Assembly (NCBI GenBank): GCA_001599295.1
Contig: BCGN01000007.1
Location: 74,433-138,432 of the forward strand
DNA length: 64,000 nucleotides
Direction of reading: 5' to 3'
Source of the DNA: Sporopachydermia quercuum
Lineage: Eukaryota
Positions 15,474 to 55,885 of this stretch are shown one piece after another. Each line of letters begins with the position of its first letter. Position 1 is the stretch's first letter. The notes beneath the pieces are model-generated. The model ran no database searches, was not told the DNA's origin, and saw nothing but the letters and a program-made list of their open reading frames with translations. The translations under genes were made by a program, and so were the position numbers.

Positions 15474-16457
15474 TCTTGGTGTATCTATTTCTGAGAAATT
15501 CACTGTCACTATTACTCCGAATTCGTATTGAATTGATGGTATTAAATCTCAGCTCTTTGCTTTATTATTTTTTGCAATCATATAAATATTGTTGTTTGAA
15601 GCAATAAAATGAAAGAAAAGAGAAGCGTTGAGAATTGAATGAAATTAAATGACATTTAGATGAAGTTGAAAGTAAAGTTTACTTTAGATAACCGCAGAGT
15701 TAACGCTCAACTTTAAATTTAAAACGCATTAGTGAAAAAGAAATAAGATTCATAGAACGAGCCAGCAGAAAGATATTATAAGGCATGACAGTTTCTATTG
15801 GATTTGTTATTATGAGTAATAACCCTGCTAGGAGAGAAGAAAAAACACAATTAGCAAAATAAGAAAGGTACAACTGCTTAGTTTGGTACCACTATTCCAC
15901 CTCTTTTTGAGAATAATTCATCAGCCCCAACCCAACAAACTTCGTTCCTCAACTAAACAAATCACGAAAAAAAAGAAGTCTTGCTCGAAACCTAAATTCC
16001 GAATATGGAGACCTAATAAGGTTAATATTTAAGATCATTGTTCCACTGTTATCATCACGTGATATTTCACATGACATTTGTCTGAAAGCCTCATCAATTC
16101 AGCTATAAGTTACTTGCTTCAATCATTACCATTTGATTTTCAATACAATTGAGGATCAAATGCTATATGACTGGTTATAATTAGACATGACGACGGCTTC
16201 TAGAATATCTCACAGTTCGTTTTCATTCCAGGTTGCTAGCTAATTTACTTCTTTCTACATCTTACAGATATTTCTGTATTCATCCTCTCTTTGATAAGTA
16301 ATGAAAGGTTTTAAATCACAACCAAAATTCAAATAAATGTTCCCAAAAATAAATGCTTAAATATTAAATGCTATAACCATCAAAAAACACCCGAGCAATC
16401 AACACCCCCTCTTCACACTCTCCCGCAGGTCACAGCTTATCATTCTCATATTGCACA

Positions 16458-39569: not shown

Positions 39570-40520
39570 ATGGCTGAGACAACAACTGAACCAACTGCTA
39601 GTTCAACTGAAAGCGAGTCTCAACAATCGGAACCTCTGGATTTGATTAAACTGTGTATTGATGAAATAGTTGTGGTGAAAGTGAGAGGTGATCGTGAATT
39701 AAAAGGAAGACTTCATGTAAGTATTAATTTTGCAGAAGGAAGAAGGAAGAAGGATTGAAATGATCATGATAGTGATAATTATAATGGTAATGAGAAAAAA
39801 TAGTCATGAGAATTATAATAGCAATAAGCCGAATTATGAACGAAGTCGTTTCACTGTCTATGTAAACCAGATGAACTGATTTCAGCTACATACTTCAACA
39901 ATATTTCTACTGTTCATCACCACTCCTATTTTACCACATTACTATAATATTAAAACTGTTGCTATTTTTTGAATTAATGAACTATTTGTTTTATCATCGA
40001 CAATGCAACAACTAAGCTATTGGTGAACTGAGCGTTTCACCAATAGTTCAATTGCATTTAGCTATTTGATGAAATCAATAGAAATAAAACAGATTTTATG
40101 ACAAAAAGGAAAATAGAATGCAAATTATTCTAACCATATGTGTCTTCTTCTGCTTGTATTACTGTTGTTGAATATTTGATTGGTACTTATTTGAAGTAGC
40201 ATAGGTATACGTAAGAGTTGTTAGTTACTCTGGTAACTTTTTATAGAATTTTGACTACTACTACTATTTCTGCTACTGCTACTGGTAGCATCATTATTTT
40301 CAATGCTTGATCATTCAGTTTATTGCTTCTACTTCAATTACTAACAAACATTCATTAGGCTTATGATTCGCATTGCAATTTGATTCTCAGTAATATAACA
40401 GAGACAATATCTGAACTTCTCAATGAAAGCGGGACTAAGAAGAAAACAACAAAAACTTCAGAAATGATGTTTGTTAGAGGTGATAGTGTTATTCTTATAA
40501 GTCCTCCTTCTGGTATTTAA
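39570..40520 (+). CDS. LSM3: Sm-like protein Lsm3; exons 39570-39716 and 40359-40520
   Basis: [40 protein letters not shown]...[16 protein letters not shown] across a GTAAGT..TACTAAC..TAG intron (39717-40358). Confidence 0.93.
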
Positions 40521-50800: not shown

Positions 50801-52453
50801 TATCTTCGGCAACTGCTCAAACAAATGAACTGAAGCTTCCGAATCAAGCTTAGGAATCATCTTTTCGATGAAAGCTTCACTCCTATCAATCCTTAGTAAT
50901 TCATCTAACAGTTTACTATCAACAGAATCAATTCTTTCAATAACCTTCACAACAGGAACAACGACATCAGCCAAGTCCCCTTTTCTGATACTTTCACCGA
51001 TTAGTCCTAAGATAGCTACTTGAGGGCTACCAATGTCTTCTTGCTCGATAAGCAATTTAATGATTCTTTCTAGCTCTTCTTTTCCTTTCAGCGCAATCAA
51101 CAACTGAGCAATTCCTTTAGATATCAGAGGCTCTTTCTCAAATAGTTCAACCAAAAATGAAATATCAGTAATCCCTATTGCATGTATGGCAGCAGCAATC
51201 TCATTCACTACAGTACTGTTAGGTCTTCTCAATAGTACTATGATTATGGGAATCAGTTCATTCATTGATGCCACAGATTTAAATGGACCTTTTAGTAGGC
51301 TTAGTAGTGTAACATTAGAGACTTCAATCTCCTCCCTAGATCTCACTGCTGAAACTGTTGTTTGAATAGAATGAAGTAATTGCTTGTTAATTAAACCTTC
51401 TGGCAAGGAATTGATCAAGAGATTCAAGCTTTTCCAATACTGTTCAGCACGTCCTGATGATCCATTTGAAATCAATTGCGTCAATACATCAATACGTTTA
51501 GCAGCCCTCTTAGAGCTTTTCCACGCTTGAGGTAACACTCGTAGAGTATCAAATAACGTAATAACAGGAGGGTTCTTCATTTTGACGATATATTTGAACA
51601 ATCCATGCAATATCTTATCGATTTCAAGATTAGGTTCAAAATTTGACGTTAGTAGAAGATTTATTGTCAACATTAACGACCGAATCACATTCGTATCTTG
51701 ATCCTTGAATAATGGCCATATTGGCGAGTCTTCAGCTTGCGGGAACTTATCAACATTGCCAAATAAAAACTCGTAATACATAGAGCATCCAGAAAACTTA
51801 CCATCAGGCGAGTCATTGCTGACAATAAGATCGCCAATAATTCCTAATGCTCCTGTATATAATCTAGCACATTTAGATGCCCTATCATGAATGCTCTCGA
51901 TTCTCTCGTCAGACAACGAAAGCGGTGTTTCTAATAATGCTGATATCACGAATGGTAGTAATTTTCTCTGAAACACTTTGAAAAGAGCCTTTTGTTTCTC
52001 TAGGTTTGGAAAACATGTTGTTATACTCGCTGTTGTTGTTTTAACCACTAGTCTATCAGTATCATGGGTACCTAATAACCATGGGCCAATTGTATATACT
52101 AAGTAAGGAGAATATTCTTTACCCAATTTCGAGCAGAATACACCTTGAACTTCATGAGACAATAATCTCACATTCCTTGAATTATCAATAGATGATTTCG
52201 GATAGATCTGAGCCCAGCACTCTAAAACACCAGCATCAGCTAAAAGGTCCTGCTTACTGATGGATTCTGATGATACTAGACTTTTGAACTTCTCTAGTGC
52301 CTTTTCTTTCGTAGTCGCATCACGTTTTAATAGAGATTTGTAGAGAATTCTCAGCTCAGGGTTTATGATAGATGATGGATCAGGAACTCCCGTAATATAA
52401 GATAAAGATATTTCATAAACTGGTGAAGACCAGTCAGTAAGCTCAGGGTTCAT
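47864..52453 (-). CDS. RKR1: Listerin/Ltn1 RING E3 ubiquitin ligase (ribosome quality control)
   Basis: N-terminal KSLLKRDATTKEKAL and YPKSSIDNSRNVR, an RWD-like LPATYPL, and a C-terminal RING (ECAICY...CPTCKNKFHASCLLKWFKSS...CPLCR). Confidence 0.95.
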   Translation of the reverse strand: MNPELTDWSSPVYEISLSYITGVPDPSSIINPELRILYKSLLKRDATTKEKALEKFKSLVSSESISKQDLLADAGVLECWAQIYPKSSIDNSRNVRLLSHEVQGVFCSKLGKEYSPYLVYTIGPWLLGTHDTDRLVVKTTTASITTCFPNLEKQKALFKVFQRKLLPFVISALLETPLSLSDERIESIHDRASKCARLYTGALGIIGDLIVSNDSPDGKFSGCSMYYEFLFGNVDKFPQAEDSPIWPLFKDQDTNVIRSLMLTINLLLTSNFEPNLEIDKILHGLFKYIVKMKNPPVITLFDTLRVLPQAWKSSKRAAKRIDVLTQLISNGSSGRAEQYWKSLNLLINSLPEGLINKQLLHSIQTTVSAVRSREEIEVSNVTLLSLLKGPFKSVASMNELIPIIIVLLRRPNSTVVNEIAAAIHAIGITDISFLVELFEKEPLISKGIAQLLIALKGKEELERIIKLLIEQEDIGSPQVAILGLIGESIRKGDLADVVVPVVKVIERIDSVDSKLLDELLRIDRSEAFIEKMIPKLDSEASVHLFEQLPKISEISGESEELAKKLGYFAGLVDSILTTFSKLPQKSQKTMISSKLISKEQILPFLVNSDWSVYDLNNPVAKEVLTEFLLSEYSNDQLSHSFLNMNLPDKISHILTSSDLLAAKLGKTVEAVLYKEAEISLEVAQYMWIKSHHTVSYHDDLFIRNVAYAVDIVQRLFINFGEFMIALPDLELNPAKLSLNVFKYVLVGGAADLWTSAIGYEIIDEHLPNDLVTYSLSGISIAEHHKTDIQSSSSISINDVINYSQAEDLAEGTTPISYYLGRAITRVLQQKIRNTPASEXSLDFDIRVWRKLLNERPFVVLAMIRAFGELRFPSLNILRNLLFSETGSLTTGLSSWILARAATKEISLPLEEERVRRLLLQISRALQGEDAYDEESWFGRIEITEIIIEVFSKQQHQQLDASIALSLLEDALALLEDTXESSDANTILIMQCMAXRLYIFLLSHTYEPWFAAIDEEWKSQQTEFENGILSIVAITPSLSTKPANSIQQSSINILIDLVTSLLRKLNIRSIDKLSDTVIYNFFLSDNLKLVRIGFWLLRVKISKEESDRVIAYELDRKEVENQEEQGDDDNDSNSDIDIRINVDSEEQEELASESGDHNNNNNNSNVNSQSSSGGDSKFALPNQLLQLLSHPADSSLTPALVPSSSTYSFLYSWILVLDHFRNASFNLQKHYVNFLVKANYIPMFLEYFFSYDKVLMKTLKTFSKDDLKILLAYSDISSNGNGNSNISSPSISHVFIYEPEDEIRVLLLDVYFLVLKTCGAVASEWYSDIRDKQFSSIVDKFTETYISPLLINEELDKVSSFFAANTSDEEFDVKVLKSAREVKAVYLVDEQKLEMVVKLPATYPLKSLSIEGKQKVGVTENQWKAWILASRRLVSSPGGNIIEAIALFKKNVSLHVSGVEECAICYAIIAQDRSLPKKSCPTCKNKFHASCLLKWFKSSGSNSCPLCRQAFSFKTSRVYQRNTGNDDEGY

Positions 52454-54237
52454 GGTTTGCAGGACCTGTAATGAGGCTTATGATGATTGCTTGAAATTAA
52501 TGGTGTAAAGTGAAATGAGTAGATATTTGTAGTTTCCTTAAAAGCACAAGCATTTCTTTATCAACTAAAAGCCTTGAAATGATGCATATAGCAGTGAAAA
52601 TATGTTGCTTATATACAATAGAGAATATTGAACGGTTGAAAGTTATTTTGATAGGACAAAAGTGAAATATTTCTTTCCTTATTAGAGTTTATGTTAGTGC
52701 CATTTTAGGCAATGATTTGGAAACTTTTCGGAGATTATTATAAAGAACATCGGATATTATATAGTCACGTCATATGAATGGAAGCACTTAGATGGTAATG
52801 ATATGGGAGAGAATGATGGGAGTTAACCAACAGATAGTCTTATTGTGTTGATATGATTTGTATAGGTACTAGTAAGTTTTTTTGAAGTAATTAATTTGCA
52901 ATTGTTGTAGTTCAAGTTGTTATTGTTAGTAAAACCAACAGTTGTATGTTCCCAGGAACAATAAAGAAAGTCGAAGGACAGCTTTCCAATGGATTTCAGA
53001 GCCTTCTACCATAACTTATTTCTTTCTGACATCAGGGTGATAGACTATATTATCATCATTCTAATTTTTTAGTGAGTTCTCTTAAATTATTCCATTGCCC
53101 TTCCACTTGCATATCCACTTGCATACAACAATTCAAATAGGTTCTAAGCCATTCCATTCCGCTTTACACATTTTTTACAATTAAGTTTAACGGTTATGCA
53201 TGTTCCTGCATAGACCCGCGTCCAAATTACTTAAACAAGAAATAAACCAAAAATTCTCGAAGATTCCTGGAATTCATTTACATATGCAACAACAGCAGGT
53301 TATCTGGTATATTTCTGTTCATCAATATTTTCATGCAGAAATGGTGAATCGAAGAAAGAAAAAAAAAAAGGTTAAAAACAGCATTTAAGGAAGCGAGAAA
53401 TTCAAAATCATGTTATCAAATAAGCGATAGAAGTATCTTTCTTTATNCTCAAGCACTCAGTAATCAGCCATAGTTCTCTAGGTCATCCACCTCTTTGCCC
53501 GATTGTCGACTGCCCATAAGTTATGGTTCCAATTACTGGAAAGAGATATTGCAGGATGAGGAGGTCTAAGTGGAGAGTGGGCTTCTGATATATGGTTAAG
53601 AATGCTAAATAGAAGCCTCTTGTAACGGAAAAAACAAAGTTAAAAAGATATGCTTCCATTAGATCTCTGGCACTTCAAATTATTGCTAAATGTATCTATT
53701 GTGTATTATAAAAATACACAGGTGCTGATCATCTCAACTTTTCATTATTAAGTCTCGATCGAGATATATATATGGATCTAACACTATTTAGACCCTTAAA
53801 GTAGGTCTTATCCGTATTCGCAAGGATCTAAATATGATGTAATCGAATAATGTATACTTAAAGTTCACCCTGACTAGTTTGCCGCATTGAACCCGCATAA
53901 TCTCATCGTTAACTCCAATAATCCGCAGTTCACTTCACCCTTACATATTACATCAAATACTCTCAATACCATACTATTCTTCTATCTTTAACTAAGGGTA
54001 TTAAAAATGTATTAGAGCAAACGTTCTGATAGATAATCAACTAGAACTCATACTATTTCCTCTTCAAATACTTCCCCCTTTTGCATTACCTCTCCCTTCC
54101 CCCTAGAGTACCTCACGTCTCCTTTCACTAACTTTCTTATCTAATAGTAGTATTAACCCAGAAAGGAAAATCCACTATTGACCCGAACAGGAGGAAAAGA
54201 CCTCGACAGGACCCACAGCAAAAAGTTTTCCTATAGG

Positions 54238-54249
54238 TGAAAATTTTCA
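54238..54249. promoter_or_regulatory. RRPE-like element TGAAAATTTTCA upstream of SPE2
   Basis: Matches the yeast RRPE consensus (TGAAAA[A/T]TTT) about 480 bp upstream of the SPE2 ATG. Confidence 0.4.
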
Positions 54250-54585
54250 TCAAATTGAGATATCTCATAATATACTAGTGGATTGGTTATCCAATTACAA
54301 CCTCAACTATCTACTGTTATAAACAATTAAATGATTAGAAACTAATCATCCAAATCCAATCAAAAAGTATACACCTTTGAACTCTGAGAAAAGCTGTGAT
54401 CAAAGGATTTAATCAAGCAGTAGAGAAAATAACTACTGCTCATATTTGAGAATTACTCGATACCAATCAACCAATAGAGATTGCCCAAGGTAAGAAAGAA
54501 AGAGTAGAAGGAACTCTTTTATCTCTGAACTTGGGATAAATAATTGACCGCTAGGATATATAGAAAGTATATCCGTGTTTTTCTG

Positions 54586-54636
54586 ATGAGTAAAGAACTA
54601 CTTGCTCGAATTTCAAGACCTTCGAAACCTGGATAA
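54586..54636 (+). promoter_or_regulatory. Upstream ORF MSKELLARISRPSKPG* in the SPE2 5' leader
   Basis: ATG at 54586 in weak context (CTG ATG), 16 codons, TAA at 54634-54636. It ends 82 nt before the SPE2 ATG with no intervening ATG. Confidence 0.6.
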
Positions 54637-54718
54637 CATCAGCAATAACTTCTTTAGACGAATAAACTATACCTAGTTGAGTATTAAACTAGGTAACAAT
54701 CACAAGTAGAATAGAAAA

Positions 54719-55885
54719 ATGGTTGCCCCTACTTTTGATGACCATACATCTGGTCAAACACATAATACTTATGTCAATCAGTCTTTAGCAGTATCGCTGG
54801 ACTCAACCAATGCTTTCGAAGGACCTGAAAAATTATTGGAGATTTGGTTTGCCCCTACAGAGAAGACATTACCATCTTCAGTACGAAACAACGGACTTCG
54901 AGCCATTCCCAGAGCTCAATGGGAAGAAATGCTCGATATTGTTCAGTGTAAAGTTTTATCGACAACCAGCTGCTCAACTTTTGATTCTTTTTTACTATCT
55001 GAATCATCCATGTTCGTATTTCCTCATAAGTTGATCCTCAAAACATGTGGAACTACTACTACATTAATTGGAATTCCCAAATTATTTTCCATCATCAAAC
55101 AATATGGGTTTCCTGAATATTCAAAGCAAACACTAAGACCTTATCGAGTTTTTTATTCTAGACGAGCATTTATGTTTCCTGATCTTCAAAAACCTCCTCA
55201 TAGAACATGGAATGATGAAGTTAAGTATTTAGATGCTTATTTCACAACTGGTGCTGCTTATTCTATTGGGAACTTGAATTCCAACCATTGGCACCTCTAT
55301 GTCACCGCACCGTCAGAAGATTTTTCTTCTTTTGCTAATGACCAATCTGATGAAACGTTGGAATTGATGATGTCTGATTTATCACCATTAGCTGCTGCCC
55401 AGTTTTCTCATGATCGTTCAATTTCTCATGAAAGCGGNTGTGACTTAGGCACGGTTTTGACCAAATCCACAGGAATTGATAAAATATACCCTGAATCTTT
55501 TGGAATTGATATCGATGCTTTTGCGTTTTCTCCTTGTGGATATTCCTGTAATGCTGTTTTGCCTTCCACAGCTACCGGAGGTCATTACTTCACAATTCAC
55601 ATTACTCCGGAAGAAGGATTCTCTTATGCTTCATTTGAATCCAATATCCTCGGAGCTGAATTTGGTGTTCGTCATCAAGATGTTGTTGGAAATGCATTGG
55701 ATATTATGAAGCCAGGAAGGTTTGCTTGTACTTTGTTTAGAAACAAAGTGGGATCTGGTGATTTCAGCGTTCAATTATCAAAATTGGCCGATAGGTTGGG
55801 CTATAAGAAAGTAGATAAAATTGTGTATGATCTTGATGGATATGAACTTTTGTTTGCAAGTTTTGAAGCTAGAAAGGGTTTGTAA
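54719..55885 (+). CDS. SPE2: S-adenosylmethionine decarboxylase proenzyme
   Basis: [13 protein letters not shown], autocleavage site [25 protein letters not shown] and [16 protein letters not shown] motifs. Confidence 0.97.

Follow-up and report, generated by a model that had tools for sequence, protein, structure and literature searches.

The window, a stretch of 64,000 nucleotides from Sporopachydermia quercuum, contains the gene SPE2, which encodes the proenzyme of S-adenosylmethionine decarboxylase (AdoMetDC). Of four DNA sequencing runs compared with this region, the two covering all of it, perhaps the source of the window itself, agreed with it throughout, and one other gave only short pieces of coding regions. 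SPE2 is present in a single copy in the genome. Its best matches are about 50% identical, and those with a name come from Trichomonascus, Sugiyamaella, Blastobotrys and Nadsonia, which probably places the organism among early-branching budding yeasts. A divergent intergenic region of 2.3 kb (52454-54718) separates SPE2 from a gene for a protein of 1529 aa with a C-terminal RING finger, which we take to resemble the ribosome quality-control ligase Ltn1/Rkr1. Neither a tRNA nor an Rfam family was found in this intergenic region, and a tRNA scan of the whole window found none. The following features were assigned to the region upstream of and including SPE2:

54318 to 54323, plus strand: TATAAA, candidate TATA box (sequence word)
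54416 to 54440, plus strand: hairpin of 8 bp and -9.5 kcal/mol within the presumed leader (folding prediction)
54484 to 54535, plus strand: long predicted stem with internal loops, overlapping the candidate splice donor (a prediction only)
54490 to 54554, plus strand: candidate leader intron of 65 nt with GTAAGA donor and CTAG acceptor (imperfect branch point; unproven)
54554 to 54574, plus strand: hairpin noticed in the initial annotation, 8 bp with a 5-nt loop, -6.7 kcal/mol (folding prediction; not conserved)
54586 to 54636, plus strand: conserved upstream open reading frame (uORF; from translation, homology and poor start context)
54628 to 54638, plus strand: conserved termination context, Pro codon-GGA-TAA-CA (from 38 distinct uORFs compared)
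54670 to 54695, plus strand: second, stronger predicted hairpin, 9 bp, -10.9 kcal/mol, between the uORF and the SPE2 start
54719 to 55885, plus strand: SPE2, AdoMetDC proenzyme of 388 aa (PF01536 among the matches listed)

Upstream of the putative TATA box lies GAAAATTTT (54239-54247), similar to the yeast RRPE promoter element.

The uORF comprises 16 codons and a TAA stop codon (54634-54636), contains no intron and translates to MSKELLARISRPSKPG, with Pro15 as the penultimate residue. Its start codon stands in a poor context (ctg-ATG-a, with C at -3 and A at +4), and 82 nt separate its end from the SPE2 start codon at 54719, which has a strong context (aaa-ATG-g, with A at -3 and G at +4). 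The uORF coordinates, the C at -3, the 82-nt gap and the strong SPE2 start had been recorded in the initial annotation and were all reproduced when the sequence was re-read, as were the arms of the inverted repeat GGATATA/TATATCC (54554-54560 and 54568-54574), located 11 nt before the upstream ATG. Among the 805 ATG-started open reading frames of 10-25 aa in the window, the uORF is the only one ending in [KE]P[RG], and it is also the sole carrier of the nucleotide ending described below.

A conserved uORF of 17 codons has been published for 25 AdoMetDC leaders of Pezizomycotina, with the consensus MSPKDLLRFLSKPAKPR (Suppl. Fig. 1A of PMC2811004, available in part). According to the same source, most AdoMetDC uORFs share a penultimate proline. 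Judged by its sequence, the uORF of the window is a budding-yeast member of this published family. It has in common with the Pezizomycotina uORF the position before AdoMetDC (at the DNA level), the length and likeness of the peptide with an acidic-Leu-Leu start and a Ser-basic-Pro-x-Lys-Pro end including the penultimate proline, the poor start with a pyrimidine at -3, and NGA as the last codon. In contrast to the Pezizomycotina uORF it belongs to a budding yeast, has 16 instead of 17 codons, ends with Gly instead of Arg and is intronless (the filamentous genomic copies are split in a Lys codon), and it is followed by a spacer of only 82 nt that holds no SDC-type structure (see below). In global alignments, the score of the window peptide was reached by none of 2000 peptide shuffles for L002 (by protein name Geotrichum candidum) and L023, by one for L005 and L027 and by three for L003. 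The likeness to two further yeast uORFs, L042 and L073, is weak, with 77 and 18 of 2000 shuffles reaching the score. A profile HMM of 25 distinct filamentous-fungal peptides ranked the window uORF first of 808 sequences (the 805 small window frames plus three yeast uORFs) with an E-value of 0.56, and L002 was absent from the top ten. Because of this E-value and the position of L002 outside the top ten, the HMM alone proves nothing; the family assignment is firm because position, length, start context and ending combine.

The SPE2 leaders of relatives were surveyed in the best 80 of 540 confirmed SPE2 stretches from a metagenome scan, in which uORFs were identified by pattern search. The count excludes two rows, one duplicating the window and the other, L066, having a match 922 nt upstream that does not end in Pro-x-stop. 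A complete uORF was recovered in 48 of these 80 loci, three of them yeasts. L002 carries an intronless uORF of 16 codons ending in Lys-Pro-Arg, while the intronless uORFs of L042 (by cluster name Sungouiella intermedia) and L073 have 20 and 19 codons and end in Glu-Pro-Gly. L073 appears to be a yeast by its likeness to L042, and the other uORF-bearing loci would be Pezizomycotina according to their proteins and uORFs. The alignment of these leaders revealed a conserved uORF C-terminus with synonymous-biased change, in some yeasts as well, a feature for which the initial annotation had proposed to examine relatives. Three of the remaining 32 loci (again of the best 80 of 540) show the 3' exon signature only (L043, L051, L062), 15 have at most 276 nt upstream, and 14 have at least 485 nt and no uORF. 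With these 14 loci of the 80 lacking it, the uORF is dispensable in some lineages. No uORF was found by pattern search in S. cerevisiae (L071) despite at least 485 nt upstream, and the available text of PMC6961545 likewise describes S. cerevisiae SPE2 as being without a uORF. Apart from their ending (Glu-Pro-Gly, GGA-TAA-CA), the uORFs at L042:2054-2116 and L073:2067-2126 are little like the family; a weak start is common to both, and they possibly form a separate yeast subfamily. We also noticed a block of about 25 nt, some 100 nt ahead of the main start, that is common to L042 and L073.

The initial annotation had held such an element to be undescribed for budding-yeast SPE2. This stands as far as Saccharomycotina are concerned, for which the literature searched, including the accessible parts of PMC2075485, PMC7394265 and PMC3432380 and few subscription papers, gave no account of a uORF. 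It does not stand for the family as such, which has been published for filamentous ascomycetes (PMC2811004); the occurrence in budding yeasts is an extension of a Pezizomycotina family already in print. An experimental test of any fungal family member was not found in the literature searched.

Among 33 filamentous-fungal uORFs, pS was 0.66 and pN 0.11. The window uORF gave pS 0.78 and pN 0.36 against these 33, and pS 0.93 and pN 0.39 against L002, where all values are uncorrected, saturated and not independent. All 33 filamentous-fungal uORFs of 17 codons end with Arg; the window uORF ends with Gly (GGA). The glycine is treated as a trait of the clade, because its codon is still NGA and a Pro-Gly end recurs in two other yeasts. 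We infer that the uORF is included in the SPE2 mRNA. The interval 54334-54718 (385 nt, chosen after looking) contains a single ATG, that of the uORF, where 7.1 would be expected at the rate of the non-coding DNA of the window. Orthologous spacers between uORF and main start measure 242-531 nt, and 32 of 36 are without any ATG; the window spacer of 82 nt is the shortest of 36 (next 242, median 395). The short spacer, the divergence of the peptide from the consensus, the missing SDC-type structure and a TATA-like word at 54557, from which transcription could start downstream of the upstream AUG, would suit a decaying remnant or a reading frame outside the mRNA, with the hairpin due to chance or to a promoter palindrome. 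We consider this most improbable. Synonymous sites have reached saturation against every relative, yet the window uORF has kept its open frame, its length, its weak start, Lys-Pro and the complete stop context, and the leader is poor in other ATGs.

Start and stop contexts were then compared across 38 distinct uORF coding sequences, the one of the window among them, for which 36 main starts were located. Position -3 of the uORF is T in 34 and C in 4 sequences, hence a pyrimidine in 38 of 38; at the main starts it is a purine in 35 of 36. The last uORF codon is AGA in 23, CGA in 10, GGA in 3 and AGG in 2 cases (NGA in 36/38) and is never CGU or CGC, compared with 35 of 73 internal Arg codons. 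The stop codon is TAA in 33 and TAG in 5 uORFs, followed by C at +4 in all 38 and by CA at +4/+5 in 36. As a rough comparison, 201 long open frames from the same loci had C at +4 in 42 cases and NGA as the last codon in 7. For intronless copies the pattern script demanded a Pro-Arg or Pro-Gly end, for split copies a Pro codon followed by one codon of any kind and a stop, so that codon choice and post-stop bases were left free in the search. By eye, 25 of 25 published rows end in NGA as well. The published figure shows nothing past the stop, and the section on the family, in the text available, makes no comment on post-stop bases (PMC2811004). Nor does the literature examined, as far as its text was accessible, remark on an RNA-level slow-termination signal at these uORF stops.

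The four intronless yeasts keep the stop ending, three of them with Gly. The ending thereby persists through the change from Arg to Gly, through the loss of the intron, and in two yeasts with barely alignable peptides. Its retention as Pro-NGA-stop-CA even at Pro-Gly ends points to a putative RNA-level slow-termination signal at the uORF stop. In filamentous-fungal genomic copies a 3' splice site precedes the ending, which might serve splicing there, but the intronless yeasts have it too. In mammalian cells, C at +4 is the most readthrough-prone context (PMC7089771, available in part). A more recent study linked termination pausing to GA-rich sequence before the stop and reported no significant downstream motif (PMC13341110, available in part). 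It is conceivable, with a chance that we put somewhat below even, that the ascomycete SPE2 sensor is largely RNA at the stop (Pro codon, NGA and UAR-CA) and outlasts the peptide. If this is true, a synonymous change of the last codon or a change of the +4 base would abolish polyamine control. S. cerevisiae would then have lost a polyamine feedback on SPE2 that is still present in budding yeasts outside the Saccharomyces group.

The predicted hairpin at 54554-54574, which has an inner U-G pair in its stem and contains the TATA-like word at 54557, had been proposed as a part of the sensor. Stems of at least 8 bp with -6.5 kcal/mol or less occur 25 times in 30,362 non-coding bases of the plus strand (0.82 per kb), and at -6.7 kcal/mol the hairpin lies near that cut-off. 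Locally the fold is conspicuous, with a z-score of -3.9 in a 33-nt piece cut around the hairpin and of -1.3 in 61 nt. No hairpin is present at this place in the yeast orthologues, and a role in a conserved sensor is not supported. A position-conserved hairpin in the last 40 nt before the upstream ATG was rejected for the whole set (mean z 0.03, 2 of 38 below -2, one of the two being the window locus). Between -70 and -30 there is a weak folding tendency in the set (mean -1.21, 7/38), which is absent in the three other yeasts. Comparison of 52450-54800 with Rfam yielded only a chance-level match outside the leader (E 3.6), and the hairpin did not match the leader motif of filamentous fungi, an element that sits downstream of the uORF. 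Long stems are also found elsewhere in the non-coding DNA of the window, at 16130-16162 (15 bp) and at 40015-40048 (13 bp), the latter near a candidate intron (40211-40358).

In the filamentous-fungal loci, the stretch from the uORF to the main start holds a conserved stem whose flanks are fixed. From its length and position, this stem would be the SDC RNA motif of Li and Breaker, a repressive stem that together with a uORF occupies the fungal SAM decarboxylase leader and that the accessible text describes as an 11-bp hairpin only (PMC5640933). A model of the SDC-type structure (R1, built from 17 loci) matched 45 of 81 loci at E ≤0.033, 17 of them training rows. It matched none of L001, L002, L042 and L073, and its best hit in the window had an E-value of 1.3 with filters off. 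As the model finds nothing in the window, the hairpin at 54554-54574 is not the SDC motif. The 9-bp hairpin at 54670-54695 occupies the analogous place, yet it does not match the model. Six loci (L011, L013, L017, L018, L032, L028) keep the SDC-type structure without a recognisable uORF, so that uORF and structure can each be lost without the other. In the SDC-type structure, conservation is higher in the flanks than in the stem itself (alignment A2, e.g. L069:2333-2402). By pairing with each other, the flanks can lengthen the helix, which then has internal loops; of its 17 predicted pairs, 3 show changes in both partners, and these 3 belong to the inner stem.

The putative leader of the window (54345-54721), for which four stems are predicted, the hairpin at 54554-54574 among them, folds with a z-score of -3.68, and none of 100 shuffles was as good. 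The 240 nt before the upstream ATG reach z -3.04, compared with a mean of -0.30 and a minimum of -1.81 for 13 other window genes (16 tested, three skipped for N). Given this value, and since 10 of 34 orthologous leaders have z < -2, structure before the uORF may be favoured without conservation of sequence. Splicing of the candidate intron at 54490-54554 would keep both uORF and hairpin; the uORF would be lost if the donor were joined to another possible acceptor at 54657. Structure or splicing might therefore decide on the presence of the uORF or the access to it, in the manner of the Sp-I/Sp-II forms of N. crassa, where uORFs are spliced out in one isoform (PMC5640933, available in part), or of the spermidine-binding leader of S. 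pombe. The strong folding of the leader and the location of donor 54490 inside a predicted stem would fit such control. Both candidate branch points, however, depart from the RCTRAC pattern that other candidate introns in the window show, z falls below -2 in only 10 of the 34 orthologous leaders, and no structure is common to the window leader and its yeast orthologues. We regard structure or splicing as the deciding element as very unlikely, while such control can coexist with a polyamine-feedback uORF. At most, the hairpins of the leader would slow scanning in a lineage-specific way.

The reading we favour, and consider likely, is that the uORF with its conserved peptide gives polyamine feedback on SPE2 translation. 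It would probably reduce AdoMetDC translation under abundant polyamines. When polyamines are scarce, the majority of scanning subunits would bypass the upstream AUG in its pyrimidine context and initiate at the strong SPE2 AUG. Ribosomes that translate the uORF would reach a slow termination site at Lys-Pro-Gly, followed by UAA-CA. At high spermidine they would dwell at the uORF stop and block scanning, and stalled ribosomes might queue others onto the weak upstream AUG, with less AdoMetDC being produced. Translation of the uORF, the stall, its polyamine dependence and a role of eIF5A are suggested by analogy with MAGDIS, the plant AdoMetDC uORFs, AZIN1 and HOL1. The sensor put forward in the initial annotation, a weak start with a Pro-x-stop end plus a hairpin, thus retains its first two elements: the homology to the published family extends over peptide, start and stop contexts, and the weak start and the stop context are conserved, but the hairpin is not.

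A functional uORF could also be a constitutive damper, a trigger of nonsense-mediated decay (NMD) or a sensor of something other than polyamines (e.g. SAM or eIF5A hypusination). Conservation shows selection and not the signal. A weak stop within a 5' leader can trigger decay, and the uORF stop could do so here. A simple damper, on the other hand, would need no conserved peptide. Mammalian and plant AdoMetDC uORFs respond to polyamines, most having a penultimate Pro (PMC2811004, as far as available), and HOL1 uses Pro-Ser-stop for polyamine control. We therefore hold these alternatives to polyamine feedback to be unlikely. In S. pombe, the uORFs of spe2 have no dominant role and an interaction of RNA with spermidine is reported instead (PMC6961545, available in part), which cautions against taking an SPE2 uORF for the sensor as a matter of course. 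By its description, the spe2 5' UTR of S. pombe resembles the window in being a structured SPE2 leader, there under translational control by spermidine; it differs in that its uORFs are not dominant.

Polyamine feedback through the uORF would have parallels outside the family. The S. cerevisiae HOL1 uORF (MLLLPS-stop) and the AZIN1 uORF, as far as described in the sources available, share with the window uORF a weak start, a Pro near the end, a gene of the polyamine pathway and, by analogy, the proposed mode of action; they differ in having an unrelated peptide and gene, and the window has Pro-Gly instead of the Pro-Ser-stop at which termination in HOL1 depends on eIF5A. With mammalian MAGDIS and the plant, nematode and algal AdoMetDC uORFs the window uORF shares the target gene, and with the plant, nematode and algal ones the penultimate Pro as well; the peptides are unrelated, and the window has no tiny uORF. 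A Pro-Gly end already exists in the AdoMetDC uORF of the red alga Cyanidioschyzon, and AdoMetDC uORFs are regarded as having arisen at least three times (both PMC2811004, in the part available).

The window uORF defines no new kind of system. It extends the fungal AdoMetDC uORF family, so far one of filamentous ascomycetes, into budding yeasts. Since this version is short, intronless and Pro-Gly-ending, it is easily built into a yeast reporter, which would allow a direct test of polyamine sensing by the family. It would also allow a test of whether the last codon and the post-stop bases act as RNA.

Two further ideas found no support. Across the genome, the start-plus-ending pattern is not rare (20 matches, and 29 in the control), which gives no support to a family of such uORFs beyond SPE2; two of ten pattern matches examined were in-frame ORFs. 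Readthrough or frameshifting into SPE2 was considered as well. Over the three frames, the 36 spacers are distributed 15, 10 and 11, and an open main frame from the uORF stop onward occurs in just one of them; because the spacer frames are random, a fusion into SPE2 was excluded. The single case among the 36 is L060, whose uORF stop shares the SPE2 frame with no further stop ahead of the main start, so that readthrough would there lead to a fusion protein.
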